A DNA stretch of 46,559 nt from a virus (UHGV-0172001); one strand, 5' to 3'; shown: positions 24,428 to 46,038, counted from the first letter of the stretch. The notes: generated by a model from the sequence alone, not told the origin. Numbers and translations: made by a program.

Positions 24428-24976
24428 GTGAAGGTTAACAAAAAGAAACTGGCGGAGATTTTTGAGTGCGATGTCAGAACAATCACTGGCTGGCAAAGTC
24501 AGGGGCTGAGAATTTTGTCGGGGGGAGGCAAAGGTATCGAGGCCATGTTCAATACTGCAGAAGCCATTGAGTGGTATGCGCAGCGGGAAAAAGATATCGA
24601 AAACGAAAAGCTCCGCAAGGAACTGGAAGATTTGCGTTCGGCTGCAGAATCAGATTTACAACCCGGCACCATTGACTATGAACGCTACCGGCTCACAAAA
24701 GCACAGGCTGACGCACAGGAGCTGAAAAATGCCCGCGAAGAAGGGCTGGTGCTGGAAACGGAATTGTTTACCTTCATTCTGCAACGTGTGGCTCAGGAGA
24801 TTTCGGGAATACTTGTACGTGTGCCGCTGACATTACAGCGTAAATATCCGGATATTTCACCGTCACACCTTGATGTGGTGAAAACTGAAATCGCAAAAGC
24901 CTCCAATGTTGCAGCTAAAGCCGGTGAAAACGTGGGCAGGTGGATTGATGATTTCAGACGCACAGAAGGCAGCTAA
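24428..24976 (+). CDS. Terminase small subunit (lambda Nu1-like)
   Basis: [12 protein letters not shown]...GGGKG...[29 protein letters not shown] parallels lambda Nu1; GTG 24428 preferred (TTG 24410 opens the ORF). Confidence 0.9.
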
Positions 24977-26864
24977 TGCAGCCGGTGCGATAACCACAGG
25001 GCTTTTATCTCTCAATATTCCGGTACCACTGACGACAGTTCAGTGGGCTGATCGACATTATTATCTGCCGAAAGAATCTTCATATACCCCCGGGCAATGG
25101 GAAACACTGCCGTTTCAGGTCGCCATTATGAACAGCATGGGAAATGACCGGATCCGCACTGTTAATCTGATTAAATCGGCGCGCGTTGGCTACACCAAAA
25201 TGCTGTTGGGGGTGGAGGCTTATTTTATTGAGCATAAATCCCGTAACAGTCTGCTTTTTCAGCCAACAGATTCTGCTGCAGAAGATTTCATGAAATCTCA
25301 TGTTGAGCCAACGATAAGGGATGTCCCTGCATTGCTGGAGCTGGCTCCATGGTTCGGAAGAAAGCACCGCGATAATACACTCACCCTGAAGCGTTTTTCC
25401 TCCGGCGTGGGTTTCTGGTGCCTGGGCGGTGCCGCGGCTAAAAACTACCGTGAAAAATCTGTGGATGTGGTCTGCTATGACGAACTCTCCTCGTTTGAAC
25501 CGGATGTGGAAAAAGAAGGTTCGCCGACGTTGCTTGGCGATAAACGTATCGAAGGCTCTGTATGGCCTAAATCCATACGCGGTTCAACGCCAAAAATTAA
25601 AGGCTTCTGCCAGATTGAGAAAGCCGCGAATGAATCTGCGCATTTCATGCGGTTTTATGTTCCTTGCCCTCATTGCGGGGAGACCCAGTATCTGAAGTTT
25701 GGCGATGATGCGACGCCGTTTGGCCTGAAATGGGAGAAGGGTAAACCGGAAACGGTGTATTACCTGTGTGAACACAATGGCTGTGTGATCCGCCAGTCAG
25801 AACTTGACCAGAGCGACGGACGCTGGATTTGTGACAATACCGGGATGTGGACGCAAGACGGCCTGACATTTTACAGCGCCAGTGATGAGGAGATACCGCC
25901 ACCGCGCTCAATCACGTACCACGTGTGGACGGCGTACAGTCCGTTCACCACCTGGGTACAGATTGTTTATGACTGGCTGGATGCGCTGAAGGATCCGAAC
26001 GGCGTCAAGACGTTTATTAACACCACGCTCGGAGAACCCTATGAAGAGGCCGTGGCAGAAAAGCTGAGTTTCGAGTTATTGCTGGAAAAGGTCTGTCACT
26101 ATGGCGCGCAGGTTCCCCTGCGGGTGGTTTACCTGACTGCCGGGATCGACTCCCAGAAAGATCGCTATGAAATTTATGTCTGGGGCTGGGCTCCCGGCGA
26201 AGAAGCCTTTCTGATTGACAAGCAAATTATCATGGGGCGACCGGAAGACGAGGACACCCTTAAACGTGTTGATGCGGTGATCAGGAAAAAATACCGCCAT
26301 GCTGACGGTACTGAAATTTCCATTTCCCGCGTCTGCTGGGATACCGGTGGTATCGACCAGGACATTGTGTATCAGCGTTCCAGAAAGCACGGCACTTTTT
26401 TTGTGCTTCCCATTAAAGGAGCATCGGTGTACGGCAAGCCGGTGATCACCATGCCCAAAAAGCGCAACCAGCGTGGGGTGTTTTTGTGTGAGGTGGGCTC
26501 TGATACCGTCAAGGAAATGCTGTACGCCCGTTTTGCCCTGCCGGTGGTCTCTGCCAGTGAAGCCGCCCCGTATACCTTCCGTTTTCCGGATAACCCGGAC
26601 ATTTTTTCGGAAGAAGAGGCGCGTCAGATCGTGGCGGAAGAACTGGTGGAGAAGGTGGTTAATGGCAGAGTGAAACTGCTGTGGGATAAAAAAGGGCGAC
26701 GCAACGAAGCCCTCGACTGCCTGGTATATGCCTATGCTGCCCTGCGTATTTCAGTTCAGCGATGGCAGCTGGACCTTGAGGCGCTGGCCCGGGCACGAAG
26801 AGATGAGCAGGATGAGGATGATATGAGTCTGGAAGAAATCGCGGCTGCACTGAGTGGAGGATAA
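24948..26864 (+). CDS. Terminase large subunit (lambda gpA-like)
   Basis: [80 protein letters not shown]: extensive collinear similarity to lambda A. Confidence 0.95.
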
Positions 26865-26867
26865 GTG

Positions 26868-27077
26868 ATGATTTATACACATGAGATGCTTTGCGAAGCA
26901 CGTCGGGCGCTGCATGAACTGATGATCGGGCGTGCTGTGGCTTCTGTCAGTAAGAACGGACGGCAGGTACAGTATTCGCGGGCGACGATTAATGAATTAC
27001 GGCGATATATTGAGGAAATTGAAAGTGCGCTTGGAATGTCAGGTCGTCGCCGTGGCCCTGTAGGAGTACGACTGTGA
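26868..27077 (+). CDS. Head-tail joining protein (lambda gpW-like)
   Basis: ARRALHELMIGRAVASVSKNGRQV...RRRGP matches lambda W. Confidence 0.85.
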   Translation: MIYTHEMLCEARRALHELMIGRAVASVSKNGRQVQYSRATINELRRYIEEIESALGMSGRRRGPVGVRL

Positions 27078-28645
27078 GCGGGGGACTGGTGGATCTTCAT
27101 GGGCAACCTCTGCGGCATAGCATGGGATATTCCGGTGGTGGTACCGGATTTGGCGGGCAACTGGCTGAATGGCTGCCTGCACCGGAAAGTGCTGATGTGG
27201 CACTCTTACCTTCCATTCAGCTGGGTAACGCCCGTGCGGATGATCTGGTCCGTAACAACGGTATTGCCGCAAATGCTGTGGAAATTCATAAAGACCATAT
27301 CGTCGGGCACATGTTTCGCCTGAGTTACCGACCCAACTGGCGCTGGCTGGGGATGTCGGAAGCTGATTCGCATGCCTTTATTGAAGATGTTGAGGCGGCG
27401 TGGATGGAATATTGCGATCCGGTGTTTGGTTCGATGGATGTGGAAGGGCGTCGCTCGTTTACCGAATTTATTCGTGAAGGGGTGGGGGTCCATACTTTTA
27501 ACGGTGAAATTTTTGTCCAGCCAGTATGGGATACGGAATCCACGTCATTATTCAGAACAAAATTCAAGACCATCAGTCCGAAGCGCGTCAGCACGCCCGG
27601 TTATGGCATCGGCGATCGTTTTATGCGTGCCGGAGTGGAAATCAACCGTCACGGAAAGGCGATGGCTTATCATGTTCAGGACGATGACTGGCCTGGCTAC
27701 GGTGTCAGCAACTGGACACGGATTGCGGCGACGCTGCCCTCCGGGCGACCGGGAATGATCCATGTGTTTCAGCCGCAGGAGGACGGACAGACGCGCGGGG
27801 CCAACCAGTTTTATTCCGTGATGGAGCGCCTCAAGATGCTCGACACACTACAGGCCACGCAACTGCAGTCGGCGGTGGTGCGGGCGATGTATGCCGCGAC
27901 GATTGAATCCACACTGGATTCGGAAAAAGCATTTGAATATATCGCCGGTGTGGGTGATGGCGGAAAAAATCCCCTGAACACCATCATGAAAGGCTATGCG
28001 CGCTATTACGCCACCAATACGGTAAAGATGGGTGGGGTTCGTATTCCGCATCTTTATCCGGGGGATTCACTGAATCTGCAGACAGCACAGAATGCGGATA
28101 ATGGTTTCTCTGAACTGGAAAAGGCGCTGTTACGTTACATTGCTGCCGGACTGGGCGTGTCCTATGAGCAGCTTTCCCGTGATTATTCACAGGTCAGTTA
28201 TTCCAGTGCCAGGGCATCCGCCAATGAGTCGTGGCGGTATTTTATGGGGAAACGAAAATTTGTGGCCAGCCGACTGGCGTCACAGATGTTTGCCTGCTGG
28301 CTGGAGGAAGCCCTTATTCGCGGTGTGATCCGCCCACCGAAATCCCGTTTCTCATTCTGGGAGGCCCGTTCCGGGTGGTGTCGTGCCGAGTGGATTGGTG
28401 CCGGTCGCATGGCGATTGATGGCCTTAAGGAGGTGCAGGAGGCGGTGATGCGTATTGAAGGTGGCCTGAGCACGTACGAGAAGGAGCTGGCCCTGATGGG
28501 CGATGACTATCAGGAGATTTTCCGCCAGCAACTGCGTGAAAGCCAGGAGCGACAGGCGGCTGGTCTTCCCCGCCCCATCTGGATAAAGGATACGTTTCAG
28601 CAGCAGATCCGACAGACAACGGGAGAAAAAGTCGATGCGTCGTAA
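27074..28645 (+). CDS. Portal protein (lambda gpB-like)
   Basis: GNARADDLVRNNG, LQTAQNADNGFS, LLRYIAAGLGVSYEQLSRDY, GRMAIDGLKEVQEAVM: near-collinear with lambda B. Confidence 0.95.
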   Translation: MSGGLVDLHGQPLRHSMGYSGGGTGFGGQLAEWLPAPESADVALLPSIQLGNARADDLVRNNGIAANAVEIHKDHIVGHMFRLSYRPNWRWLGMSEADSHAFIEDVEAAWMEYCDPVFGSMDVEGRRSFTEFIREGVGVHTFNGEIFVQPVWDTESTSLFRTKFKTISPKRVSTPGYGIGDRFMRAGVEINRHGKAMAYHVQDDDWPGYGVSNWTRIAATLPSGRPGMIHVFQPQEDGQTRGANQFYSVMERLKMLDTLQATQLQSAVVRAMYAATIESTLDSEKAFEYIAGVGDGGKNPLNTIMKGYARYYATNTVKMGGVRIPHLYPGDSLNLQTAQNADNGFSELEKALLRYIAAGLGVSYEQLSRDYSQVSYSSARASANESWRYFMGKRKFVASRLASQMFACWLEEALIRGVIRPPKSRFSFWEARSGWCRAEWIGAGRMAIDGLKEVQEAVMRIEGGLSTYEKELALMGDDYQEIFRQQLRESQERQAAGLPRPIWIKDTFQQQIRQTTGEKVDAS

Positions 28646-30251
28646 TTTATCGCATATTGCCGCCATGGCATTTAATGAACCGCTTTTACTGGAGCCCGCT
28701 TATGCGCGGGTTTTCTTTTGCGCGCTGGGTAAAGAGATGGGGGCCGGCAGCCTTGCCGTTCCTCAGCAGGCTGTTCAGCTTGATGCTGATGGTATGCAAC
28801 TGGCTGTGACTGACTATATGGCGGGCGGTCAGCGCCCGGCAAAGAGTTACCAGGTGAAGAATGGCATCGCCATTCTGCCGGTGAGCGGCACGCTGGTGCA
28901 TAAACTGGGTACCCTGCGCCCTTACTCCGGCATGACAGGCTATGACGGCCTGACTGCCCGTCTTCAGATGGCGGTGAATGATCCGGATGTGCGCGGCATT
29001 TTGCTGGATATCGACAGCCCGGGCGGTCAGGCTGCCGGGGCGTTTGACTGTGCTGACATGATTTACCGCCTGCGGGAACAGAAGCCCGTGTGGGCGCTGT
29101 GTAATGATATGGCCTGTTCAGCCGCCATGTTGCTGGCGGCAGCCTGTACGCGTCGGCTGGTCACGCAGACGGCAAAAATTGGTTCGATTGGTGTGATGAT
29201 GGCGCACACCAGTTACGAGAAACAACTGGCACAGGAAGGGGTGGATATCACGCTGATTTACTCCGGGCAGCACAAGGTTGACGGCAACAGTATTCAGGCA
29301 TTGCCGGCAGGTGTGCGTGCAGATTTTCAGCGCCGTATTGATGAGGCCCGCCGGATGTTTGTCGACAAGGTGGCGCTTTATACGGGGCTGAGTTCAGAGG
29401 CGGTGATGAATACCGAGGCTGCCGTTTATGACGGTCAGGCAGGCATTGATGCAGGCCTGGCTGATCAACTGATTAATGCTGCAGATGCCGTTGAAGTGAT
29501 GGTTTCTGCACTGAATGACTCTGTTACGAAGGAGAATGCAATGACTGTTAAAAATCTCACCGTTGCTGAAGCGGTGGCCCAGGAAAATCAGCGCGTGATG
29601 GGGATCCTGAATTGTCAGGAGGCGAAAGGGCGCGAGCAACTGGCGCAAATGCTGGCAGAACAACCGGGAATGTCGGTTGAGCAGGCGAAAACGTTGCTGG
29701 CAGCTGCGCCGGTTGCCGGTACTGACAGCACGGGGGGGCAGATTATGGCGCTGCCGGAAGCAAAGGGGCGTGAGCAACTGGCACAGATGCTGGCAGGTCA
29801 ACCGGGAATGACGGTGGAGCAGGCGAAAGCGTTTCTGGCAGCAGCCCCTGCTGCCAGTGCTGCAGGCACAGGCGATAAGATTATGGCGTTGCCGGAAGCT
29901 AAAGGGCGTGAACAACTCGCGCAGGCGCTGGCTGAACAGCCGGGAATGACCGTTGACCAGGCAAAAACGTTACTGGCAGCGGCACCGGTTGCCTGTTCTG
30001 CAAGTGTCGGCGAGCAGATTATGGCGCTGCCGGAGGCGAAAGGGCGCGAGCAACTTGCACAGGCACTGGCAGAACAACCGGGAATGACAGTGGCGCAGGC
30101 AAAAACGTTGCTGGCAGCCGCGCCGACGGCATCGCAGCCGTCACAGGAAACACTTTTTGATCGCTTTATGGCACAGCATGCTGCCAGTGCGGTTTCCGGT
30201 GGTGGAGCTGCCGGGCACGGAGAAGAAGATCTGCTGATGAGTATGCCGTAA
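28635..30251 (+). CDS. Head maturation protease / scaffold (lambda gpC with Nu3-equivalent region), with an expanded repeat domain
   Basis: HIAAMAFNEPLLLEPAYARVFFCAL, PYSGMTGYDGL, GVMMAHTSY match lambda C; C-terminal part contains four 46-aa tandem repeats. Confidence 0.9.
   Translation: MRRNLSHIAAMAFNEPLLLEPAYARVFFCALGKEMGAGSLAVPQQAVQLDADGMQLAVTDYMAGGQRPAKSYQVKNGIAILPVSGTLVHKLGTLRPYSGMTGYDGLTARLQMAVNDPDVRGILLDIDSPGGQAAGAFDCADMIYRLREQKPVWALCNDMACSAAMLLAAACTRRLVTQTAKIGSIGVMMAHTSYEKQLAQEGVDITLIYSGQHKVDGNSIQALPAGVRADFQRRIDEARRMFVDKVALYTGLSSEAVMNTEAAVYDGQAGIDAGLADQLINAADAVEVMVSALNDSVTKENAMTVKNLTVAEAVAQENQRVMGILNCQEAKGREQLAQMLAEQPGMSVEQAKTLLAAAPVAGTDSTGGQIMALPEAKGREQLAQMLAGQPGMTVEQAKAFLAAAPAASAAGTGDKIMALPEAKGREQLAQALAEQPGMTVDQAKTLLAAAPVACSASVGEQIMALPEAKGREQLAQALAEQPGMTVAQAKTLLAAAPTASQPSQETLFDRFMAQHAASAVSGGGAAGHGEEDLLMSMP
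29607..30160 (+). repeat. Four tandem 138-bp in-frame repeats within the protease/scaffold gene
   Basis: Units starting near 29607, 29745, 29883 and 30021, each encoding ALPEAKGREQLAQxLAEQPGMTVxQAKxLLAAAP... Confidence 0.85.
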
Positions 30252-30288: not shown

Positions 30289-30624
30289 ATGATTAAAACA
30301 ACCACAGAAAAGCGCGCGGATGTGCATATTTTTGCCGGAAGCGATCCGGCGCATACCGCAACAGCCACCAGTGGTATCAGTGCTGCCACGCCCGCACTGA
30401 CGCCGCTGATGCTGGATGACGCCACCGGCAAACTGGTGGCATGGGATGGTCAGAAAGCAGGAACGGCAGTGGGCGTGCTGGCTCTGGCGCTTGCCGGAAC
30501 AGAACCCACGCTGACGTACTACAAAAGCGGTACATTTGCCACTGAGTCGCTGGTCTGGCCTGATTCTGTGGATGCGGTGAAAAAAGCCAACGCATTTGTG
30601 GGAAGTGCCATCAGCCACGCCTGA
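30289..30624 (+). CDS. Head decoration protein (lambda gpD-like)
   Basis: [29 protein letters not shown] match lambda D. Confidence 0.9.
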
Positions 30625-30693: not shown

Positions 30694-31722
30694 ATGGGGT
30701 TATTTACCACGCGTCAGTTACTCGGGTACACCGAGCAGAAAGTGAAATTTCGTGCGCTGTTTCTGGAGCTGTTCTTTCGTCGCACGATCACTTTCCATAC
30801 TCAGGAAGTCATGCTGGATAAAATTACCGGCAAAACACCGGTTGCGGCGTATGTGTCTCCGGTGGTGTCAGGCAAAGTGCTGCGCAGCCGTGGTGGTGAA
30901 ACCCGCGTGTTACGTCCCGGTTATGTAAAACCAAAACACCGCTTTGATTATCAGCAGGCAGTGGAACGTCTTCCGGGGGAAGATCCGGCCCGTCTTAATG
31001 ACCCGGCCTACCGCCGCCTGCGTATTCTGACTGACAACCTGAAGCAGGAAGAGCAGGCGATTGTACAGGTGGAAGAAATGCAGGCGGTCAGTGCCGTTCT
31101 GCAGGGTAAGTACACCATGAGCGGGGAACAGTTTGAGACGGTGGAAGTGGATTTTGGGCGCTCTGCCACCAATAACATTACGCAGGCTGGCGGCAACAGA
31201 TGGTCACAGCAGAATGCTGACACCTTTGATCCAACGCACGATCTGGATGCGTACTGTGATTTTGCCTCCGGGACCATCAATATCGCGATTATGGATGGCA
31301 CAGTCTGGCGTATGCTGAATGGCTTTAAGCTTTTCCGTGAAAAACTGGATACCCGTCGTGGTTCAAAATCGGAACTGGAAACCGCGCTGAAAGACCTGGG
31401 CTCCGTAGTCTCTTTTAAGGGTTATTACGGTGATCTGGCTATTGTGGTGGCGAAAACCGCTTACGTCGATGAAAACGGGGATGAACAGCGTTATCTGCCG
31501 GAAGGCACACTGATTCTGGGGAACACTCAGGCGGAAGGCGTCCGTTGCTATGGGGCCATTCAGGATAACCAGGCGCTGAGTGAAGGGATCACCTCTGCAA
31601 TTCGTTATCCAAAACACTGGCTGGAGGTGGGTGATCCTGGTTGCGAATATACCATGACGCAGTCTGCGCCGTTGATGGTGTTGCCGGATCCTGACGCGTT
31701 TGTGGTGGTTCAGGTGAAATAA
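30694..31722 (+). CDS. Major capsid protein (lambda gpE-like)
   Basis: YVSPVVSGKVLRSRGG, PGYVKPKH, DPAYRR, VEEMQAVSAVLQGKYTM, KLDTRRGSKSELETA, MTQSAPLMVL match lambda E. Confidence 0.95.
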   Translation: MGLFTTRQLLGYTEQKVKFRALFLELFFRRTITFHTQEVMLDKITGKTPVAAYVSPVVSGKVLRSRGGETRVLRPGYVKPKHRFDYQQAVERLPGEDPARLNDPAYRRLRILTDNLKQEEQAIVQVEEMQAVSAVLQGKYTMSGEQFETVEVDFGRSATNNITQAGGNRWSQQNADTFDPTHDLDAYCDFASGTINIAIMDGTVWRMLNGFKLFREKLDTRRGSKSELETALKDLGSVVSFKGYYGDLAIVVAKTAYVDENGDEQRYLPEGTLILGNTQAEGVRCYGAIQDNQALSEGITSAIRYPKHWLEVGDPGCEYTMTQSAPLMVLPDPDAFVVVQVK

Positions 31723-31750: not shown

Positions 31751-31772
31751 TTTAGCGCACGGGAGAGATGTG

Positions 31773-32138
31773 ATGACAAAAGAGCAGATGACTGAACGTT
31801 TGCAGGAACTGGCAGTGATTCTGGGGCGTGAAGCAGATATTTCAGGTTCAAAGGCCGATCTTGAGCAGCGCCTGGCGGAATGGGAAGAGGAGGCCGCCGG
31901 ATTCGATGGGGAGGATACCGGGGCGGAAGAGGTGGACAACGATGCATCCGGCGACGGGATGCATTCTGAGCGGGGACTCGTCCGGGTGCGCATGCTGAAA
32001 ACAGCGCATATGCCAGCCTGTGATGCTGTGACGGGAAAAATGTTGATGTTCGCCCGGGCCTCCAGTGTTGTGCTGGTTAATGAAGCCGCAGTTCCTGCAT
32101 TGCTGGCGGACGGTCTGGCAGAAAAAATTCGGGAGTAA
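31773..32138 (+). CDS. DNA packaging / head completion protein (lambda FI position)
   Basis: Acidic protein after the capsid gene in the FI position; N-terminus MTKEQMTERLQEL resembles lambda FI. Confidence 0.55.
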   Translation: MTKEQMTERLQELAVILGREADISGSKADLEQRLAEWEEEAAGFDGEDTGAEEVDNDASGDGMHSERGLVRVRMLKTAHMPACDAVTGKMLMFARASSVVLVNEAAVPALLADGLAEKIRE

Positions 32139-32542
32139 TGATGTTTGATAATCTGTTCGATCAGGCCATGAGTGATGCGGATAACATCATCCTGGATACG
32201 ATGGGGACGGAAATCAGCATATATCCGGGCGGCACGGAAAGAAAAATCCGTGCCGTTTTTGATGCCCCGGCAGATAACACCGGGATGAACACTGGCAGTG
32301 GCGAAATTCGTGATACTGCGCCCGTGTTATTTACCCGGAGCACATGGGCCGCCGGTCTGAAAAAATATGACAGGGTCATGATCCACGGCGAACCCTACCA
32401 GGTGGTCGATCCCGGCTGGGATGAGTCGGGTACTGCGGGTCATGGTGTGATTACCATTACTCTTGCGCGGGGAGAACCCGGAAGAAGTACACCTGCTGCC
32501 CCTGTCCGACCGAGTAAACGTTATGGCAGTCAGAGAGCATGA
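32138..32542 (+). CDS. Head-tail connector (lambda FII-like)
   Basis: FDNLFD N-terminal motif shared with lambda FII; position after FI. Confidence 0.7.
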   Translation: MMFDNLFDQAMSDADNIILDTMGTEISIYPGGTERKIRAVFDAPADNTGMNTGSGEIRDTAPVLFTRSTWAAGLKKYDRVMIHGEPYQVVDPGWDESGTAGHGVITITLARGEPGRSTPAAPVRPSKRYGSQRA

Positions 32543-33245: not shown

Positions 33246-33808
33246 TGGAACCATTGATGATGGGAACCTGGCATCAGGCAGTGATTGACAGTCTGAAACA
33301 AATTCCCTGGGTGGAAGATGCCGATGACTACCCGGAAAAAGTGACGCAACTGGTGACGCCTGCCGTGTTTGTGGATGTGCCTGGCTGGGACAAGGCACAG
33401 TTTGCCGACGGGCAAACGCGGGTCACACTGAAATGCGATCTGTTTGTGGTGACTGATCGGGCCGGAAAGACGGAAAACGTGCCAAAACCGCAGATATTTG
33501 CCCGCTGTCTGGCAATGGATTTATCTGACTGGATTGATGGAGCCACGTTCGGGCTGGATAACGTTGACCCGGCGGTTTTTATCGATGCTGAGGTGGATAC
33601 CTTCGACCGACTGCTGGACGACTACATCGTTTTCCGTGTCTCTTTTGAACAGGACATTCCGGTCGGCGAAGATCCGTTTGCAGTTCCGGCAGGTGCGCCG
33701 TTACAGGAAGTCTGGCTGGGTAAAGTACCGGAAACCGGTAAAAAGCATGTGCAGGATTATCGTCTTATCTGGAAAGCGGAGGGCACCGGCGATGAGTCTG
33801 GCGGATGA
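33242..33808 (+). CDS. Putative tail terminator / completion protein (gpU-like position)
   Basis: 188-aa ORF, ATGA coupling with the upstream gene; precedes baseplate gpV. Confidence 0.4.
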   Translation: MMEPLMMGTWHQAVIDSLKQIPWVEDADDYPEKVTQLVTPAVFVDVPGWDKAQFADGQTRVTLKCDLFVVTDRAGKTENVPKPQIFARCLAMDLSDWIDGATFGLDNVDPAVFIDAEVDTFDRLLDDYIVFRVSFEQDIPVGEDPFAVPAGAPLQEVWLGKVPETGKKHVQDYRLIWKAEGTGDESGG

Positions 33809-34415
33809 AGTGGCAGAGTTACGCCGCAGGGTGGCGGACATGGTCCGTCGCGGCGTGGTGGAAGAGGTGATCCCGGGTAGCCCGGTGATGGTCCGGGTGG
33901 ATATCGGAGATGTGCTTTCGCCGCCGTTGCCCTGGATTCAGGTGCAGTCCGGGCGTTACATGCAGGTCAGTAATTACCCGGCACCCGGAGATGCGGTCAC
34001 GGTGATATCGGAGGCAGGTGATCTGCGTAATGGTCGGGTGTATCCGGGGGCCAACATTGACGCGATTCCGGTACCGGCGGGCAGTGAACACGAGCATGTT
34101 ATTTTGTTTGATACCGGAACGGAGATCCGTTACGACCGCCAGGCTAATGCCCTGTCCATCACGCTGGTTGAAGGCGGCAGCTATAAAATCACCGGCAGGG
34201 GAACGCTTGACGGTCCGGTGGAAATCACGGATACCCTGACTGTGCAGGGAAAAACGAAGATTAATGCCGATACGCAGGTTCTGGGCAATATCGGTGCCTC
34301 ACAGGAGATCACCGACAAAACCGGTAGCATGAGTAAAATTCGCAAAATTTATAATACTCATGATCACCCTGGCGACAGCGGGGGAACCACCCGTAAACCT
34401 AACCAGGAAATGTGA
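33792..34415 (+). CDS. Baseplate assembly protein V (P2 gpV-like spike)
   Basis: C-terminal NTHDHPGDSGGTT matches P2 V HTHKHPGDSGGTT; ATG 33792 after GGAGGG. Confidence 0.85.
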   Translation: MSLADEVAELRRRVADMVRRGVVEEVIPGSPVMVRVDIGDVLSPPLPWIQVQSGRYMQVSNYPAPGDAVTVISEAGDLRNGRVYPGANIDAIPVPAGSEHEHVILFDTGTEIRYDRQANALSITLVEGGSYKITGRGTLDGPVEITDTLTVQGKTKINADTQVLGNIGASQEITDKTGSMSKIRKIYNTHDHPGDSGGTTRKPNQEM

Positions 34416-34449: not shown

Positions 34450-34806
34450 ATGATTGGTATTGATTCCGCCACTGGCAGATATCTGCACGGTAACGAACAT
34501 CTGCGTCAGTCCGTCACCGATATTTTATCAACACCGGTCGGCAGCCGGGTACTTCTCAGGGAATACGGCAGTAGGTTGTTCAGTCTGCTTGATAACCCGC
34601 AGGATGATTTTACGCGGGTGAGGATTGTCCGTGAAACGGCAACCGCCCTTGAACGCTGGGAACCCCGCCTGACCCTCCGGCGGGTGGAGGTGACGTGGAC
34701 AGGAGAAGGAAGCGCCTGGCTGACGCTTGTCGGGGTGAACAACGAAACACAGGAAACGATTCGACTCGAGGAGATAAAAATTGGCAGCATCTCAGGCAAT
34801 CATTGA
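34450..34806 (+). CDS. Baseplate protein W (P2 gpW / gp25-like)
   Basis: 118 aa; MIGIDSATGRYLHGNEHLRQSVTDILSTPVGSRVLLREYGSRL is typical of the GPW/gp25 family. Confidence 0.85.
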   Translation: MIGIDSATGRYLHGNEHLRQSVTDILSTPVGSRVLLREYGSRLFSLLDNPQDDFTRVRIVRETATALERWEPRLTLRRVEVTWTGEGSAWLTLVGVNNETQETIRLEEIKIGSISGNH

Positions 34807-38108: not shown

Positions 38109-39539
38109 ATGCCATCAGGGCTGACGTTAACAAAAAAAGGGGCTGCCGAAATAGAGTCTGCTTATCAGGCTGGACAGGTAGTGACGATCACTCATGTACT
38201 GACAGGAGATGGCGGCGGGCAGACGTTACCGTCAACGCCGGATGAAATGGCAGCAATGTCGGCATTGCTGGGGCAATTTGGTCAGGAGCCATTTTCAGAA
38301 GGTAAGGTTGATGAGGGATTTATTAGTGGTGACATTGTTATTGACTGTAAAAAATACCCAGGAAAGACACTGCGTGAACTGGGGATTGTAAGCAGCAGCG
38401 GTACGCTGATAGCGTACGGGCGTTATCCGGATACGTACTTACCGGCACAGACAGATTCTGTCATCAAAGAGGTTATCCTGACACTGGTACTGGGGCTGAC
38501 GCATGCGCAGAACGTGACGCTGGAGCTTGACCCGTCCAGGGTGATTATCACGCAGGAGGCAGGAGATAAACGCTATCTGCGTATCAGAGAGAATCTTGCC
38601 GATGTGGAAGATAAAGATGAAGCGGTTGATAACCTCGGGTTAAAACCGACGGTGGACAAGGCAAAAAATGCCGTCCAGCGCGACGGCGATACCATGACCG
38701 GCGAGCTGAAAATCCGTGGTGTTAATGCGCTGCGAATTTTCAACGAAGCCTTTGGTCTGATTTTTCGTCGTTCGGAAGAGTGCCTGCACCTTATTCCTAC
38801 CAGTGAAGGTCAGGGCGAGAATGGTGATATTGGTCCACTTCGCCCGTTCACTATTAATCTGCGGACGGGTGAAATATCTATGTCGCATAAAGTGTCTGTT
38901 GGCGGTGGTTCGCAGGTCAATGGTGCACTGGGTATCGGCGTTCAGAACGCGCTGGGCGGAAACTCAATTGCTTTCGGGGATAACGATACAGGTATAAAAC
39001 AAAACGGTGACGGTATTCTGGATGTTTATGCGAATGGTCAGCATGTATTTCGTTTTCAGAATGGTGTTGCCATGGCGTTAAAAAATATTCAGGCCGGGAA
39101 TGCCAGAATATTCACATTATCCAGTTCCAACAGCTCCACGAAAAATGCAGGGTTTAATTTATGGGGTAATTCATCCCGACCTGTAGTTGCAGAGCTTGGT
39201 GATGATTCCGGCTGGCATTTTTACAGCCAGAGAAATACCGATGGCAGTATCACATTCGCTGTAAACGGACAGATGATCCCATCAAACTATGGAAATTTCG
39301 ATGCCCGTTATCAGCAGCGAAATGGCGGCGTGCAGGATGTGCGTTATGGTTCCGAAATGTTTTATAACCCGGGAGGTAACCAGGTGTCCTGGACATTTCG
39401 CTCACCTTCAGGCCACGGATTATCCGGTATTAATGTGCAGGAAACCGGAAGCAATTCGGCAGATAACATCGGCGGCGTATATTACCGACCTCTTCAGAAA
39501 CTGATTAATGGCACCTGGTATAACGTGGCGAGTGTTTAA
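38109..39539 (+). CDS. Tail fiber protein (gpH-like)
   Basis: N-terminus KKGAAEIESAYQAGQVVTITHVLTGDGGGQ resembles the conserved N-terminal domain of P2-type tail fibers; Gly/Asn-rich C-terminal region. Confidence 0.8.
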   Translation: MPSGLTLTKKGAAEIESAYQAGQVVTITHVLTGDGGGQTLPSTPDEMAAMSALLGQFGQEPFSEGKVDEGFISGDIVIDCKKYPGKTLRELGIVSSSGTLIAYGRYPDTYLPAQTDSVIKEVILTLVLGLTHAQNVTLELDPSRVIITQEAGDKRYLRIRENLADVEDKDEAVDNLGLKPTVDKAKNAVQRDGDTMTGELKIRGVNALRIFNEAFGLIFRRSEECLHLIPTSEGQGENGDIGPLRPFTINLRTGEISMSHKVSVGGGSQVNGALGIGVQNALGGNSIAFGDNDTGIKQNGDGILDVYANGQHVFRFQNGVAMALKNIQAGNARIFTLSSSNSSTKNAGFNLWGNSSRPVVAELGDDSGWHFYSQRNTDGSITFAVNGQMIPSNYGNFDARYQQRNGGVQDVRYGSEMFYNPGGNQVSWTFRSPSGHGLSGINVQETGSNSADNIGGVYYRPLQKLINGTWYNVASV

Positions 39540-39541: not shown

Positions 39542-40084
39542 ATGTTGCATTTAAAAAATATTACTGCGGGTAATCCGAAAACCGCAGAACAATACCAGAT
39601 GACAAAAAAATATGATGTTACCTGGCTTTTTTCGGAAGACGACAAAAACTGGTATGAAGAACTGAAGAATTTCGCCAGCGACACAATAAAAATAGCTTAC
39701 ACCGGAGATGGTCGCGTGGTATGGGTCGGTAAGGATGTGACAGGCATTGAACCCCGCAACACCAGTGTTATTGAGGTTCCGGACATTACCGCTAACCGTC
39801 GTATCACCGCGCCGGGCTACTGGTTTTACCGCGACGATAAATTTGTCTTCGACTACAAACTTAAAGCAGAAGATGAGCGCGATGCTCTTCTGGCTCAGGT
39901 CAGCATCATAACCAGCGAATGGGAAAAAGACCTGCTGCTGGGATTAATCAGTGACGAAGACAGGGAGAAGCTGAAAGCGTACCGCATTTACGCGAAATCG
40001 CTGCAGGCGATGGATTTCAGCGCTATTACGGATAAGACCACTTACAACAATATTAGCTGGCCTGAGCAGCCACAAAATACCTGA
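39542..40084 (+). CDS. Tail fiber assembly protein (Tfa / gpG-like)
   Basis: Immediately downstream of the fiber gene; C-terminal ISWPEQP motif typical of Tfa proteins. Confidence 0.8.
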   Translation: MLHLKNITAGNPKTAEQYQMTKKYDVTWLFSEDDKNWYEELKNFASDTIKIAYTGDGRVVWVGKDVTGIEPRNTSVIEVPDITANRRITAPGYWFYRDDKFVFDYKLKAEDERDALLAQVSIITSEWEKDLLLGLISDEDREKLKAYRIYAKSLQAMDFSAITDKTTYNNISWPEQPQNT

Positions 40085-40138: not shown

Positions 40139-41614
40139 ATGTCCGGATTACATGGTGTTGAAACCATTGAACTGACGACAGGCACGGTTGCCGTGCAGAC
40201 CATCTCCACGGCAGTGATTGGCCTGGTGGGGACAGCGCCGGACGCCTCTGGTGGTGTGTGCGCTTCCGGCACAGCCGGCTCCTGGCTGCTGGGAACGGCG
40301 CTGGATTTCACGGCGAAACAGGAAGGCCGGGCCGGCAATAAGATTTCGGTGGTTGCCGTCGCGGCCACAGAACAAAGCGCGCAGACCACGGCCTCACTGG
40401 AAGGTACAACCCTGACGATAAAGCTGGGGACGGATGAACACAGCCAGGTTAACGCCACGGTGGACCGTGTAACTGAAGTGGTGAATGCACTGGGTGATTC
40501 ACCTGTGACGGCGGCGGTCAGTACCCTGAATGCAGGGAGCGCTGAAAATAATGTGGTGTCGCCATTCAGCCTGACGTTATCCGGCGGGGAAGATGAGGCG
40601 TTCCCGGTTAATACACCAGTTGTGGTGGCAGGAGCCATTACTCAGGCAGGAAAACTGGGGGCCGCCGGAACACTGTATCCGGCCCTGCGAGATATTTTTG
40701 ATCAGACCGGTGCACTGGTGATTGTGGTACGTGCGGAAAGCAAACCGAAAGCGAAAGAGGCTGAACAACGCGCGGCGGTGATTAAGGCCATGGAAGCGCT
40801 GACAGAGAGTAAAGGTGTGACGGGCTATCAGCCGCGCATTCTCATTGCCACGGGTTACAGTGAGGATGATGGTGTGGCAAAGGCGCTGGAAACGTATGCC
40901 GCGAAGCTGCGGGCTGTGGCCTATATCGACTCTCCCTCAATGGCAACGCCGCAGGATGTGGTTCAGCGGCGCGCATCCTTTGGCGGGCGCGTGGAACTGA
41001 TGCGCCCACGCGTGTCAGTAACGGATGACAGCGGGCAGATGGTATTTCGTCCGTATTCGGCGCGCGCTGCCGGGCTGCGTGCCCGTATTGATTACGAAAA
41101 AGGGTGGTGGTGGTCCAAATCAAACCAGGACGTGATGAATATCACCGGTCTGGAGCAGGTGGATACGTTTATTCTCGGGGAGCAGAACTGCACGGCAAAC
41201 CTGCTGAACATGGAAAATATCTCCACCATTATTCGTCACGACGGCTTTAAGCACTGGGGGAACCGTCTGTGTTCATCCCACAGTCAGTGGCGCTTTGAGC
41301 CGGTACGCCGTACTGCAGATGTGATTGAGGACAGTATTCAGGAGGCCATGCTGCCTTATGTCGATCGCCCGCTGGATCGTGATGTGGCGGACGACATTCT
41401 TGGCAGTATTAATGCCTATATGCGTCAGCTTAAAAATCTGGGCGCGATCCACGGTGGCAGAGCCTGGCTGAATGATGAACTGAACACAGCAGAAACCCTG
41501 GCTGCCGGGCAGTTGTATATCGATTATGACTTTGGACCGAAGTCACCACTGGAACGCCTGACACTGCGGGCGATGATTAACAATAAACTGGCGCTGGAGG
41601 AGCTGACGGTATGA
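40139..41614 (+). CDS. Contractile tail sheath protein (P2 FI-like)
   Basis: 491 aa; position and length match a tail sheath; followed by tube and frameshifted chaperone genes. Confidence 0.85.
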   Translation: MSGLHGVETIELTTGTVAVQTISTAVIGLVGTAPDASGGVCASGTAGSWLLGTALDFTAKQEGRAGNKISVVAVAATEQSAQTTASLEGTTLTIKLGTDEHSQVNATVDRVTEVVNALGDSPVTAAVSTLNAGSAENNVVSPFSLTLSGGEDEAFPVNTPVVVAGAITQAGKLGAAGTLYPALRDIFDQTGALVIVVRAESKPKAKEAEQRAAVIKAMEALTESKGVTGYQPRILIATGYSEDDGVAKALETYAAKLRAVAYIDSPSMATPQDVVQRRASFGGRVELMRPRVSVTDDSGQMVFRPYSARAAGLRARIDYEKGWWWSKSNQDVMNITGLEQVDTFILGEQNCTANLLNMENISTIIRHDGFKHWGNRLCSSHSQWRFEPVRRTADVIEDSIQEAMLPYVDRPLDRDVADDILGSINAYMRQLKNLGAIHGGRAWLNDELNTAETLAAGQLYIDYDFGPKSPLERLTLRAMINNKLALEELTV

Positions 41615-42129
41615 TTACGGGTGAAAAAAAACTGTTGCGCGCGTGGGCGTTATTTCTTCCTGGCGGGATCCGTCTTCAGGGGGCGCATGAGTACACGCCG
41701 CCAGCCATTAATATCACGACAGTGGATATCAAAACCGGTGCAATGGATGCACCGGTGGCAGTGGATGACGGCATGGAAGCGCTGACCTGCTCATTTAAGA
41801 TTTATGGCTACGATGTTGCCATGCTGACCCTGCTGGGATTACAGGCCGGGCTTTATTCGCCGGAGATCGTTGTCCGCCAGGCTTACCGGGTGGGGAATGC
41901 GACCAGCGGACAGGTGGAAACACTGCAGGGGATGATCACCAGTATCACGCCGGATGCGCGCCCGGCAACGTCACAGGCGGAGGCTTCGGTGACGGTGGAG
42001 ATGTCGCTGAGTTATTACCGTCAGGCTGTAGATGGTCTGGAAACCATCTGCATTATTCCGGAGGAATTTGTTCGTCGTATTAACGGCGTTAATGTTCTGT
42101 CGGATCTGAAAAAAATCATCCGGGTTTAA
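41611..42129 (+). CDS. Tail tube protein (P2 FII-like)
   Basis: 172 aa; ATGA overlap with the sheath gene. Confidence 0.8.
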   Translation: MITGEKKLLRAWALFLPGGIRLQGAHEYTPPAINITTVDIKTGAMDAPVAVDDGMEALTCSFKIYGYDVAMLTLLGLQAGLYSPEIVVRQAYRVGNATSGQVETLQGMITSITPDARPATSQAEASVTVEMSLSYYRQAVDGLETICIIPEEFVRRINGVNVLSDLKKIIRV

Positions 42130-42150
42130 TCCGGGTATCCGGTTATTCAG

Positions 42151-42178
42151 GCGGCTCAGGCCGCCTTTTCTTTTTTTA
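42151..42178 (+). terminator. Terminator/attenuator between the tube and chaperone genes
   Basis: GGCGGC-tcag-GCCGCC plus T run. Confidence 0.6.
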
Positions 42179-42190
42179 AAGGAGATGCTT

Positions 42191-42493
42191 ATGTCGGAAA
42201 AAAACAGTGTGCCTGCCAGCAGCGTGGAAATTGTGTTATCCGTGCCGTATGTCACCGCATCAGGACAGACGATCACGCACGTCACCATGCGTGCGCCCAC
42301 TGTCCGCGATCGTCTGTTGCATCGCCGGAGTACCAAACCGGAAGCAGAGGCTGATCTGGATATGATTGCCGGTCTGTGTGGGATGGACGCGGCAGACATG
42401 ATGAACATGGAAGCGTGTGATTACCTGGCCCTGGAGCGTCAGTTTAATGTTTTTTTGCTGCCGCCGGTCCGGCGGAAGAAGAAAGTATCCTGA
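42191..42493 (+). CDS. Tail assembly chaperone gpE; a -1 frameshift product E+E' would extend to 42630
   Basis: ATG 42191 after AAAGGAG; slippery heptamer T_TTT_TTG in frame; the -1 frame stays open to TAA at 42628-42630. Confidence 0.7.
   Translation: MSEKNSVPASSVEIVLSVPYVTASGQTITHVTMRAPTVRDRLLHRRSTKPEAEADLDMIAGLCGMDAADMMNMEACDYLALERQFNVFLLPPVRRKKKVS
42451..42457 (+). other. Programmed -1 ribosomal frameshift site (slippery heptamer T TTT TTG)
   Basis: Zero-frame codons GTT TTT TTG; same heptamer class as P2 E/E' and analogous to lambda G/GT. Confidence 0.7.
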
Positions 42494-42610
42494 CAGCGAT
42501 ACGGCGTGCCGGTGCCTGGTTCGGGTGGTCTCCCGGAGATGTGATGGCGCTGCCGTATACGGATTTTGTGTCAATGATGCTGGCGGAGTCGGAAGAGAGG
42601 AAGCGACGTT

Positions 42611-44263
42611 ATGGCAACGGTTGGCGATAACCTTAAAGCGAATATCAGGATCGGCGGCACGATAGATCCGTCGTGGAAAAAATCGGTAGATGGACTTAAG
42701 CACGGATTATCAGGAGCAACGCAGGAAGTGGCTCGCCTGACACGCCAGCAGGATGTACTGAAACGAAAAATTCAGGCTGGCGTACTGGCTGGACAGGATA
42801 TTACTGAACTGCGAAAGCAGTATGAAAAGCTGGGCAAAAAAATTCATGATGCCGCCGGAGAGCAGGACAAATTTAACCGTAAGCTGGCTCGTGCTGAACG
42901 TCTGGAACGCTGGAAAGGGCGGGCCGGGACGGTCCTTAAAACCGGTTTTGGGCTTTCTGTTGGTTCGGGGTTGACGCTGGCAGCGGGCACTACCGCTGTG
43001 CTTAACCGGAATACGGAAACGGCAGAGCGGGCAGGGATAGCCCGCAGTTACGGGGTGGATTATGAAACCTATGCGGCATGGGATTCACTTGCCCGGCTGA
43101 TGGGGCTGAACGGTGAAAACATCGGTGATCTGTTTGAGGAGTACCGGAACAAGGTTTTTGACGATGATAATGGTGCCACGGATAAAGGGGCCATTCAGGA
43201 GGTGTTTGGTGCGCTGGGGCTGAAAGCCGGGGTGATGGCCGGAAAAAGCAACCAGGAGCAGGTCGAGTTTTTATTTGATCGCTTACTGCAGGTAGAGAAT
43301 GAACAGGTGGCTGCCGGGATGGCAGATGCGCTGTTTGGTGGTGAGGCCAATAAAATTCTGACCTGGATGCGTCTGTCAGGAAAAACTTACCGGGAGCTTA
43401 TCAGTGAGCAGAAACGCTATAACCTGGTGACAAAGGCAGGGGCAGATGGCGCAGTTCAGGGGCATATGGCGCTGTCAAATCTCAGTAATGTTCTGAGTTC
43501 GTCCATTGATGAAATCAGCGGGCAACTGGGTAAGGAGCTGGCACCACATATTCAACAGGTGACGGATGACCTTGCGGCCTGGTTTAAGTATGGTGGACTG
43601 GAAAAAATCCGGGCATTTATCCGTGATGATGCCCTGCCGGCGCTGATCGACATGGCAGCATGGATGTGGAAATTCGGAAAAGTTCTGGCTGGAATCACAC
43701 AAAAAGCCATTGAGTGGGGGTTAGCGGATGATCCACGAGAGGACCGGCGAGAGGTGCTGGAATATCTGGCAAAAATGGGGTCGCCGGAGCTGGCGAGAGC
43801 GGTGGCGCAGAAAAACGGTCAGGGTGAATGGTTTGATGAACTTATCAGGCAAAATCCGGACCTGACGAAACAGGTTGTACAGGCCTATAAAGACACCCGC
43901 GGTTATTTCCCCTGGAATCATGACGATAAAAAGTTTGATGCATTTCTCGACCCTTTGCTGGGACCGAAGGAAGAACCTGATTTTAAGGCGATAAAAGAGA
44001 AATCCCGCACCTACATTGACGGACTTCCTGCGGCAGGTCAGGGACAGGAAAATCCTGATCGCCTTTCAGCCCTCCAGTATACACCCGGCAGTATCAGCCA
44101 GGTGGAAGTAAAACCCACATATCAGATACGGGCCGAATTTAACATCACCCAGAAATCTGGCGAGGATGCCGGACAACTGGCAGACAGGGTGACGAAAAAT
44201 CTGGGGGATATTAATTTTGGCCAGCGTTCCCGTATGACTGATGGTTATGAATCCTGGGGGTGA
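42611..44263 (+). CDS. Tail tape measure protein
   Basis: 550-aa largely helical protein directly after the frameshifted chaperone genes. Confidence 0.75.
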   Translation: MATVGDNLKANIRIGGTIDPSWKKSVDGLKHGLSGATQEVARLTRQQDVLKRKIQAGVLAGQDITELRKQYEKLGKKIHDAAGEQDKFNRKLARAERLERWKGRAGTVLKTGFGLSVGSGLTLAAGTTAVLNRNTETAERAGIARSYGVDYETYAAWDSLARLMGLNGENIGDLFEEYRNKVFDDDNGATDKGAIQEVFGALGLKAGVMAGKSNQEQVEFLFDRLLQVENEQVAAGMADALFGGEANKILTWMRLSGKTYRELISEQKRYNLVTKAGADGAVQGHMALSNLSNVLSSSIDEISGQLGKELAPHIQQVTDDLAAWFKYGGLEKIRAFIRDDALPALIDMAAWMWKFGKVLAGITQKAIEWGLADDPREDRREVLEYLAKMGSPELARAVAQKNGQGEWFDELIRQNPDLTKQVVQAYKDTRGYFPWNHDDKKFDAFLDPLLGPKEEPDFKAIKEKSRTYIDGLPAAGQGQENPDRLSALQYTPGSISQVEVKPTYQIRAEFNITQKSGEDAGQLADRVTKNLGDINFGQRSRMTDGYESWG

Positions 44264-44265
44264 AG

Positions 44266-44754
44266 ATGGTGGATTTACTGGGCTGGGGCGTAAACCGGCT
44301 TGAGCGCGAAGCATGGGACGCAGTGGGCTCATTAACGGAGGTGGCTTCCCGCGTCATGCTGTCGTTTGGTGAGTTTGAATTCAGTATCGATACGGCAGCG
44401 TATAACGCCATGAAGCGCACCATGGAATGGCGGTGGGATGAACAGCAGCTTATCGGAAAAAACGACCTGCTGCAGTATACCGGCAAAGGAGCCAGAGCAA
44501 TAACCCTTGAAGGTATGGTGCATGCAGGATTTCGTGACGGTGTGGGAATGGATGCCCTTGATACACTGGTTCAGATGGTGGATGACAATCCGGCTCCCCA
44601 CCTTCTGGTTTCAAGCACAGGTGATGTGATGGGGTATTTTGTTGCAACCTCCTATTCAGATAACACCACGTCCTTTCTTCCCGGCGGTGCGCCGAAGAAC
44701 AAAACGTTCACACTGGAGCTGAAATACTATGGCGAAAAACTGGCGGACCACTGA
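44266..44754 (+). CDS. Tail protein gpU-like
   Basis: Position between tape measure and X/D as in P2; ATG 44266 after GGGGG (GTG 44260 is an alternative). Confidence 0.7.
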   Translation: MVDLLGWGVNRLEREAWDAVGSLTEVASRVMLSFGEFEFSIDTAAYNAMKRTMEWRWDEQQLIGKNDLLQYTGKGARAITLEGMVHAGFRDGVGMDALDTLVQMVDDNPAPHLLVSSTGDVMGYFVATSYSDNTTSFLPGGAPKNKTFTLELKYYGEKLADH

Positions 44755-44947
44755 CGGCGATATGCTGGATGATATCTGTCAGAGACACTATGGCAGCGCC
44801 GGACTTAACCAGTCACTGGCGGCGGTACTGGAAGCCAATCCCGGACTGGCTGACCTTGGTCCGGTCTATCCGGCGGGAGTGGAAATCGTGTTGCCGGACT
44901 GGACATATGAACCGGAGCAAAAGGAGGCGTTTCAGTTATGGGACTGA
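44729..44947 (+). CDS. Tail protein X (P2 gpX-like, LysM-like)
   Basis: GDMLDDICQRHYG...VLEANPGLADLGPVYPAGVEIVLPD parallels P2 X. Confidence 0.8.
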   Translation: MAKNWRTTDGDMLDDICQRHYGSAGLNQSLAAVLEANPGLADLGPVYPAGVEIVLPDWTYEPEQKEAFQLWD

Positions 44948-46038
44948 ATGAGTATCAGCCGGATTTCAGCCTGACAGCAGAGGGGGAGGATATCACGAAG
45001 GCCATAAAGCGGGGGCTGGCTGAACTGCGTTATACCGATAATGGTGCTGCCACAAAGCGGTCCGATGAACTGATGATAACCCTGTTCAGTGAGACGATGG
45101 CGCTGCCGCCAAAAGGCGCGGTATTAACGCTGGGGCTGGGATTCAACGGAAACCTGGTAAATAAAGGCAGTTTTACCGTCTGTCAGGTGGCAAGTGGTGG
45201 TCCTCCCCGCCGAATCACCATTTATGCCACAGCCGCCCCCATGAATGCGTCAAAACATGGCGCAGACGTGACTGCACTGAAAACCCGTGCGTTCAGCGAT
45301 GTTACGCTGGGTGACCTGGTGAAAACGATCGCCACTGAAAATAATCTGGTGGCGCGGGTCTCACCGGCGCTGGCAAAAATTCGTATCCCGTGGGTGATGC
45401 AGTCATCTGAATCGGATGCGTCCCTGCTGTCCCGGCTTGCAGGTATGTATGGTGCCACCAGTAAACCGACGAACGGTTACTGGTTATTTCTGGAGTATGG
45501 CGCATCACAGAGCGCGGGTGGCAGGGATGCGCCTGTAATGACCATCACGCCGGGCATGGTGTCAGACTGGGATTACCGGGAGGGGGAGCGGCAGGGAGCA
45601 TCCGGAGGCGGAAAAGGAACAACAAAAAAAGGGAAAGTGGGTGTCAGATATTTTGACTCTCGCGACGGGAGAACGCGTGAATTTAAAGTGGATGTGGAGT
45701 CCACAGACAAGCGACATCCATTCACTCAGCCGGATCAGGATACAGCAAAACACTGCGCAGACTCTAAGGTTAAACGTGTGCAGAAAGCCGGACGCCAGAT
45801 GACGATAACGCTGCCCTGCAGGCCCGCATTGTTGAAAGCTGGGGCGGAAATGCGTTTTATCACGCAGGGATTTGGGGTACGGGAAGATCATAACTGGCAG
45901 GCTGAGTCGGTGGAGTTTTCACTGGCACCGGGGCAGGGATTTACGCTGAATCTGTCGCTGGCCACCGATATCTCCGCGAAAGGGAAAGCATCAGGGAAGA
46001 AGAAAGCGGATAAAAAAGGCGTGAATTATTACGGGTAA
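44938..46038 (+). CDS. Late control protein D (P2 gpD-like baseplate hub)
   Basis: 366 aa, terminal gene of the P2-type tail operon. Confidence 0.85.
   Translation: MGLNEYQPDFSLTAEGEDITKAIKRGLAELRYTDNGAATKRSDELMITLFSETMALPPKGAVLTLGLGFNGNLVNKGSFTVCQVASGGPPRRITIYATAAPMNASKHGADVTALKTRAFSDVTLGDLVKTIATENNLVARVSPALAKIRIPWVMQSSESDASLLSRLAGMYGATSKPTNGYWLFLEYGASQSAGGRDAPVMTITPGMVSDWDYREGERQGASGGGKGTTKKGKVGVRYFDSRDGRTREFKVDVESTDKRHPFTQPDQDTAKHCADSKVKRVQKAGRQMTITLPCRPALLKAGAEMRFITQGFGVREDHNWQAESVEFSLAPGQGFTLNLSLATDISAKGKASGKKKADKKGVNYYG

Follow-up and report, generated by a model that had tools for sequence, protein, structure and literature searches.

The stretch of viral DNA analyzed here (UHGV-0172001, 46,559 nucleotides, referred to as the window) carries between positions 24428 and 46038 a set of virion genes that raises two questions: how a head of the lambda type came to stand beside a contractile tail of the P2 type, and which proteins make the joint between them. 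Sequence comparison confirmed that this region reads as the intact particle-building block of a lambda-like prophage, combining a lambda-type head with a contractile tail of the P2/R-pyocin type. It comprises 24 genes on the plus strand, packed tightly or overlapping, in the order that an earlier note on this DNA had given. Very probably, the block represents the late operon of a lambdoid temperate myovirus, complete and functional. The two proteins encoded at the junction, termed J1 and J2, are neck proteins: J1 is a tail-completion protein of the gpZ family, and J2 is a terminator onto which the FII-like head-completion protein is expected to dock. For coordinates and family assignments see Table 1.

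The head half is built like that of lambda. The genes Nu1-A-W-B-C-D-E-FI-FII (24428-32542) are collinear with lambda and homology was detected for every one of them, for eight by tblastn (33-65% amino acid identity) and for FI by Pfam and PHROG only, as no BLAST match to lambda FI was obtained. All identities to lambda and P2 are from reciprocal tblastn, and family support is from Pfam and PHROG. From Nu1 to the stop codon of E the nucleotide sequence is ~75-80% identical to phage 21 and lambda-like phages (megablast). This similarity ends at position 31722, the E stop (the match to phage 21 ends at query position 7295). The closest characterised phages for the head are lambda and phage 21, and the E protein is 59% identical to lambda E compared with 35% for the myovirus Valp1. 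The head is not closer to a known myovirus lineage, which is in line with the earlier note.

A lambda-type cos site appears to be present upstream of Nu1. The region aligned with lambda starts with a palindromic cosN equivalent, GGGTACGCGTAC (24241-24252), at the place of the 12-nucleotide cohesive end of lambda, which would be the putative cleavage site. Conserved cos boxes lie between this element and Nu1, one I2-like (CGCTATTTATGAAAATTTTC) and one R3-like (TCCGTTCTTCTTC). The exact lambda cosN 12-mer is absent; the cos region was located by alignment, and its cohesive-end sequence differs. The features shared with lambda are thus the gene order from cos through FII, the cos sub-sites and, as described below, a gpZ in the same PHROG as J1. 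The differences from lambda in this half are a repeat in C and an FII protein with a C-terminus longer by 17 residues.

Downstream of the junction, the genes V-W-J-I-H-G-sheath-tube-E/E'-T-U-X-D (33795-46038) form a contractile tail cassette of the P2 superfamily with 22-48% amino acid identity to P2. The P2 homologues detected at this level are V, W, J, I, H, G, FI (sheath), FII (tube), U, X and D. P2 E and T gave no BLAST match; the corresponding genes were assigned by PHROG and Pfam, by position and by the frameshift described below. The two-block order of P2, with baseplate and fibre genes followed by the genes from sheath to D, is retained as well. Because the sheath, tube and baseplate genes are all intact, we infer that the tail of this prophage would be contractile. 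The tape measure protein T is one of the differences from P2, with 550 residues here and 815 in P2; it is 33-42% identical to the equivalent gene product of related phages. At about 0.15-0.17 nm per residue, a ratio taken from Valp1 (596 residues, 90 nm) and P2 (815 residues, 135 nm), the 550 residues would predict a tail of about 83-91 nm.

The chaperone gene E provides a further point of agreement. A slip site, T_TTT_TTG, is found at 42451-42457, which corresponds in relative position to the site annotated in P2. E ends at 42493, and the predicted -1 frameshift adds 57 codons to give an E+E' protein of 148 residues ending at about 42630. This product is collinear with P2 E+E', though the alignment is weak. 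The open reading frame 42417-42665 lies in the +1 instead of the -1 frame and was rejected as E'.

The gene order of the tail does not follow P2 throughout. In P2 the X gene lies beside the lysis genes, whereas here it is found between U and D, as in the R2 pyocin of Pseudomonas aeruginosa (PA0615-PA0628; PDB entries 6u5b/6u5f/6u5h and 3j9q). The PDB homologues of J2, J, sheath and U are the R2 pyocin proteins PA0615, PA0618, PA0622 and PA0626, and the offsets of these tags (0, +3, +7, +11) equal the gene offsets of J2, J, sheath and U in the window. These four locus tags indicate that the order terminator-V-W-J-I-H-G-sheath-tube-E-T-U-X-D is shared with R2 pyocin, including a collar/terminator family gene directly upstream of V. 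As judged by gene order, the tail cassette including its terminator follows R2 pyocin rather than P2, and R-pyocin-type is the better label at the neck. The earlier description of the tail as P2-like in both order and sequence hence holds for homology but not for the position of X. R2 pyocin differs in being a bacteriocin without head, packaging and gpZ/FII/W genes, while the cassette described here is part of a complete phage. In addition, the sheath of the window is longer at its N-terminus by about 100-145 residues, and gpI is far larger.

None of the lambda tail proteins Z to J has a BLAST match in the window (tblastn, E≤0.01). Of these, only the family of Z and the fold of U recur here; the tube, tape-measure and tip genes of lambda (V-J) are missing, and the terminator belongs to the PA0615 family and not to phrog_37. 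On the P2 side, neither the head genes Q (portal), P and M (terminases), O (scaffold), N (capsid) and L (completion protein and adaptor) nor gpR (terminator) and gpS (tail completion) gave a tblastn match in the window.

J1 and J2 had been described as two proteins of uncertain affinity, but both can be placed. The full length of J1 matches phrog_27 (tail completion or Neck1; E=4.9e-26). This PHROG also contains lambda gpZ (E=3.2e-69), as well as the proteins at the same position in Wolbachia phage WO, Vibrio phage Valp1 and the E. coli prophage vB_EcoM-705R4. A small hidden Markov model of J1 relatives was collinear with lambda Z at an E-value of about 1e-4 (one target). No Pfam match and no BLAST match in lambda or P2 was found for J1. 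A direct search of the PDB gave nothing meaningful, and a search with the J1 profile gave only spurious matches.

J2 probably starts with the ATG at 33245, which overlaps the stop codon of J1. It has no Pfam match and no BLAST match in lambda or P2, and phrog_1072, to which it belongs, is labelled as of unknown function. A direct sequence search of the PDB returned nothing meaningful and a shallow J2 profile reached only E=0.001 to PA0615. The J2 family comprises at least 357 clusters at 50% identity in a search of 1.84 billion representatives. Owing to the 128 further family members from this search, the resulting profile of 129 sequences matched PA0615 decisively, over its whole length and with E=2.9e-34. 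The predicted structure of J2 has the terminator fold, which is common to sipho- and myoviruses.

Taken in order, the neck genes W (phrog_75), FII (phrog_82), J1 (phrog_27) and J2 (terminator fold) correspond to the Type 1 neck of Virfam. This neck (gpW/FII/gpZ/gpU) is common to sipho- and myoviruses, and one myovirus with a gpW-type neck has been described (PMC4362835). J1 extends the collinearity with lambda through Z, and J2 occupies the position of gpU with a protein of the R2 pyocin collar family. The corresponding P2 proteins fall into other PHROGs, R into phrog_65 and S into phrog_26. Moreover, the neck of P2 itself consists of portal, gpL and gpR according to a cryo-electron microscopy preprint (10.64898/2026.09.14.750843), so that the neck of the window is lambda/pyocin-like and not P2-like. 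The suggestion that the two junction proteins act as compatible connectors is correct insofar as they are neck proteins. They do not answer a special need for compatibility, however, since the Type 1 neck and the terminator fold are common to sipho- and myoviruses, and they are not located between the two cassettes but travel with the tail.

This last point follows from a relative in which the head has been exchanged. Locus L029 (IMGVR_UViG_2917403263_000003, 1-20564) shares 81-100% identity with the window across its tail, J1 and J2 (J1 91%, J2 95%). The head of this relative, in contrast, is of the ClpP-major-capsid-fusion type, and its terminase and portal are only ~23% identical to those of the window. 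Nucleotide homology to the window is interrupted between 24283, in the cos region, and 32457, ~85 nucleotides before the end of FII. The FII proteins of L029 and the window are about 43% identical overall, but their last 27 residues are exactly shared. These breakpoints identify cos-to-FII and J1-to-D as the exchangeable units, and a boundary inside the 3' end of FII assigns J1 and J2 to the tail cassette. Instead of extending over 32523-33808, as had been assumed, the boundary between the head and tail modules lies, on this alignment, at about 32457-32523, upstream of J1 and J2.

The same assignment follows from the two deposited phages whose tail cassettes are most similar to that of the window (41-63% amino acid identity), Hafnia phage yong2 and Citrobacter phage Chris1. 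Their J1 and J2 proteins are 41-52% identical to those of the window and are immediately preceded by an FII-like protein. Their heads, however, are ClpP-major-capsid fusion heads whose terminase and portal are only ~24% identical, and the identities of J1 and J2 therefore track the tail and not the head. The tail order of both phages is permuted (V-sheath...D, then W-J-I-H). A DNA invertase accompanied by inverted fibre genes is present in Chris1 but not in the window.

The L029 crossover falls into a conserved C-terminal segment of FII, 'TLAxGEPG...', which could be a conserved recombination linker, a peptide docking onto the J2 ring, or both. A more general scheme, which we put forward only tentatively and regard as less probable than not, is that a generic joint between FII and the terminator makes the cos-FII and J1-D cassettes freely interchangeable. 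As a corollary, R-type pyocins would descend from the lambda-head lineage and not from P2-like phages proper, because they share the terminator family and the gene order.

The combination is not restricted to this prophage. At a coverage threshold of at least 80% of the block, the whole block was found in 67 complete E. coli genomes with about 90-96% nucleotide identity, and in the one relative that was inspected it is annotated without pseudogenes. The same full order was observed in the divergent E. coli prophage vB_EcoM-705R4 (head 39-63%, tail 31-47% amino acid identity) and in Vibrio phage Valp1 (head 35-49%, tail 28-51%). It consists of lambda-type A-W-B-C-D-E-(FI)-FII, the gpZ-family and J2-family genes, V-W-J-I-fibre and sheath-tube-E-T-U-X-D. 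A stretch of Wolbachia phage WO has this order from the terminase via the gpZ- and J2-family genes to V-W-J-I, and its genes from sheath to D are known from the literature (PMC3235987). WO has been called a lambda/P2 chimera, with Xylella XfP1/XfP2 cited as further cases (PMC3235987). Valp1 was identified as a myovirus by electron microscopy, with a 60-nm head and a 90-nm contractile tail (PMC11054321). Both WO and the Valp1/VHML group of Vibrio telomere myoviruses differ from the window in showing only 25-50% amino acid identity, in having extra PAAR genes (Valp1 and WO) and in their lifestyle modules: a protelomerase plasmid prophage in Valp1, a eukaryotic association module in WO and E. coli lambdoid early genes here. 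The vB_EcoM-705R4 records are computationally identified prophages, and our literature search found no dedicated description of an E. coli phage of exactly this type.

We further surveyed 60 loci from IMG/VR and GTDB, a single scan of genome contigs having yielded only 2 loci. In every surveyed locus with a sufficiently long contig, J1-J2 was flanked by a lambda-supergroup head on one side and a V...D tail on the other. The mosaic is an old and widespread lineage of known kind, and not a one-off or new recombinant.

The distribution bears directly on the idea that the locus is a recent, unusual recombinant of a siphovirus like lambda with a myovirus like P2, J1 and J2 being novel adaptors that evolved to fit the parts. 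Such an origin would explain why the head, up to the end of E, shares ~75-80% nucleotide identity with phage 21 and lambda-like phages while no deposited phage closely matches the tail at this level, and why J1 and J2 are without BLAST match in lambda or P2. We nevertheless judge it highly improbable, since the same head-neck-tail order is present in distant lineages whose heads and tails have diverged in parallel (705R4, Valp1) and, from terminase to I, in WO. J1 and J2 come from large, old families (the gpZ PHROG and the PA0615 collar family with its 357 clusters at 50% identity), and lambda/P2 chimeras had already been described for the WO and Xylella phages (PMC3235987). The survey of 60 loci likewise argues against a confinement of J1/J2 to one E. 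coli lineage and against a single recent join. Collinearity of the tail cassette and collar with the R2 pyocin cluster PA0615-PA0628 might instead suggest that the tail half is a headless R-type tailocin, a bacteriocin, with the lambda-type head genes decaying beside it as a remnant; phage tails of this kind are a known source of tailocins. This is very unlikely given the state of the head half. Head, packaging and neck genes are all intact and under purifying selection. The median ratio of nonsynonymous to synonymous substitution rates (dN/dS) is 0.04-0.12 for E, FII, J1, J2, V and tube, with values of 0.04 for E (capsid), 0.04 for tube, 0.08 for J2, 0.09 for J1 and 0.12 for FII. The lambda-type cos site and J1, with its role in head-tail completion, are kept, the prophage has a full lambdoid early, lysis and integration set, and Valp1, which has this layout, forms complete myovirus particles.

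The junction itself speaks to a third possibility, namely that two prophages or remnants, one lambda-like and one P2-like, merely lie side by side, their proximity being functionally meaningless. Prophages often accumulate at integration hot spots of E. coli, and a related copy of the block is located in ydfJ, beside a DinI-like gene remnant. However, no integrase, att site, regulator or lysis gene separates the halves, and there is no att or integrase scar at 32.4-33.8 kb. The genes in fact overlap across the junction: FII and J1 by 20 nucleotides, the J1 stop with the J2 start, and J2 and V by 14 nucleotides. Neither lambda tail genes nor P2 head, R, S or L genes, and no second head or tail set, are present anywhere in the window, and the junction is conserved across genera. 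We therefore give this explanation next to no credence.

For the reading as one late operon of a lambdoid temperate myovirus we propose the following assembly pathway, by analogy with lambda and with P2 and pyocin assembly. Nu1 and A would cut the DNA at the lambda-type cos and package it into a lambda-type head made of B, C, D and E with the help of FI. The filled head would then be closed by W and FII. The tail is presumably built separately on a V-W-J-I-U-X-D baseplate of the P2/R-pyocin type. Its length would be set by T together with the E/E' chaperones, followed by polymerization of tube and sheath. A hexamer of J2 would cap the tail by binding the last tube and sheath layers, and the gpZ-family protein J1 would complete it. 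Head and tail could then be joined by FII docking onto the J2 ring, in the same way as lambda FII docks onto gpU.

Several observations weigh against this reading or parts of it. The J1 profile gave nothing by hhalign against lambda Z or P2 S. The structural model of J1 is poor, with a predicted local distance difference test (pLDDT) score of 59, and its link to gpZ is one of remote homology at the PHROG level. The confidence of the J2 model is moderate (pLDDT 71). For J2, hhalign detected no sequence similarity to P2 gpR and only a marginal one to lambda gpU (E 0.0017, probability 15%). Without clear similarity to gpR or gpU, the contact between FII and J2 is argued from fold and position only. 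No att direct repeat or attR was found within the window. Finally, the prophage is known from its genes, its particle being unseen, and both its inducibility and its tail morphology are extrapolated from relatives.

The main value of the analysis is one of annotation: two proteins listed as hypothetical in RefSeq can now be given names, one as a tail-completion protein of the gpZ family and the other as a tail terminator of the PA0615 family. For the J2 family, which has no Pfam model and whose phrog_1072 is labelled "unknown", this closes the gap by assignment to the pyocin-collar terminator family. The head exchange described above is a clean, natural cassette swap that could serve as a guide for constructing chimeric phages or tailocins. 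No new kind of virion or mechanism is revealed, as the combination of lambda head and P2/pyocin tail is already known and is common in E. coli.

Table 1. Genes and sites of the virion block, with the evidence for each assignment (aa, amino acid identity).
Feature	Position	Strand	Evidence
Lambda-type cos region (putative)	24241..24427	+	aligned with lambda bases 1-205
Nu1, terminase small subunit	24428..24976	+	52% aa to lambda Nu1; phrog_57 E=1.6e-61
A, terminase large subunit	24948..26864	+	65% aa to lambda A over 625 residues; phrog_15
W (head), head-tail adaptor	26865..27077	+	48% aa to lambda W; phrog_75 E=5.8e-30
B, portal protein	27074..28645	+	62% aa to lambda B; phrog_21
C, S49 prohead protease with scaffold-like C-terminal part	28635..30251	+	55% aa to lambda C over 397 residues; Peptidase_S49 E=1.5e-33
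D (head), head decoration protein	30289..30624	+	54-60% aa to lambda D; phrog_49
E (head), major capsid protein	30694..31722	+	59% aa to lambda E
FI, DNA-packaging chaperone	31770..32138	+	Pfam PF14000 Packaging_FI E=2.8e-14; phrog_92 E=1.7e-33
FII, head-completion (Hc1) protein	32138..32542	+	33% aa to lambda FII; Pfam Phage_attach E=1.6e-12; phrog_82
J1, gpZ-family tail-completion (Ne1) protein, 240 residues	32523..33245	+	phrog_27; overlaps FII by 20 nucleotides
J2, tail terminator, R2 pyocin collar (PA0615) family, 188 residues	33242..33808	+	PA0615 profile match; terminator fold
V, baseplate spike/assembly protein	33795..34415	+	27% aa to P2 V; phrog_9992
W (tail), gp25-like baseplate wedge/sheath initiator	34450..34806	+	39% aa to P2 W; Pfam GPW_gp25 E=2e-15
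J, baseplate wedge protein	34781..35695	+	40% aa to P2 J; R2 pyocin Tri1a PA0618 E=2.5e-56
I, extended baseplate protein, 802 residues	35688..38096	+	37-41% aa to P2 I; Tail_P2_I E=3.3e-36; LRR_5 E=9.5e-18; weak Big_2
H, tail fibre	38109..39539	+	36-48% aa to P2 H; phrog_6859
G, tail-fibre assembly chaperone	39542..40084	+	41% aa to P2 G; phrog_136
Tail sheath, 491 residues	40139..41614	+	35-38% aa to P2 FI; PA0622 E=3.3e-53; Pfam Phage_sheath_1/1C
Tail tube	41611..42129	+	Pfam Phage_tube E=3e-22; 22% aa to P2 FII
E and E+E' (tail), tail assembly chaperones	42185..42630	+	slip heptamer and position as in P2; phrog_166
T, tape measure protein, 550 residues	42611..44263	+	position; weak tape-measure PHROGs (5e-9); phrog_3654
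U, tail/baseplate protein	44260..44754	+	33% aa to P2 U; R2 pyocin Ripcord PA0626 E=5.2e-15
X, small baseplate hub protein	44729..44947	+	46% aa to P2 X; phrog_46
D (tail), baseplate hub	44938..46038	+	40% aa to P2 D; R2 pyocin chain 6u5h_C E=1.7e-17; phrog_52

Among the virion proteins, I, sheath and C are larger than their counterparts. The I gene had been expected to encode about 176 residues, the length of P2 gpI, but its product has 802. It is composed of a Tail_P2_I domain, a weak Ig-like Big_2 domain and leucine-rich repeats of the BspA type. Among close relatives, no other protein varies as much as I (44-93% identity). This variability suggests that I may act on the rim of the baseplate as a second element for receptor binding or host range. 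The sheath, compared with 396 residues in P2 and 386 in PA0622, aligns with both only from about residue 100-147, and its extra N-terminal region is possibly a surface domain. The C protein has 538 residues and that of lambda 439, the difference being due to the repeat in its scaffold-like part (29618-30125), which consists of 3.7 tandem copies of a 138-nucleotide (46-residue) unit with ~80% identity between copies. A may start at either 24906 or 24948, the latter corresponding to the PGAP start in one relative. No credible minus-strand gene was found in 24428-46038; the open reading frame 40093-40638 on that strand was discounted, as it sits within the conserved sheath gene.

The left half of the window is a typical lambdoid prophage adjoining potC. 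Its early and lysis content includes an integrase, an excisionase, an exonuclease, dicB, repressor-like helix-turn-helix genes, DUF968, RusA and a Q antiterminator. Also upstream of the head block are a methyltransferase, two tRNA genes, two holins and an M15 endolysin. The tRNA genes, tRNA-Thr(tgt) and tRNA-Gly(tcc), lie 4 nucleotides apart at 20285-20438, between the methyltransferase gene and the lysis genes. At the other end of the window (46039-46559), the first 214 nucleotides past gene D correspond to the equivalent prophage end in E. coli 401651, after which the sequence diverges and contains no open reading frame. The right end of the prophage (attR) is probably located near 46250.

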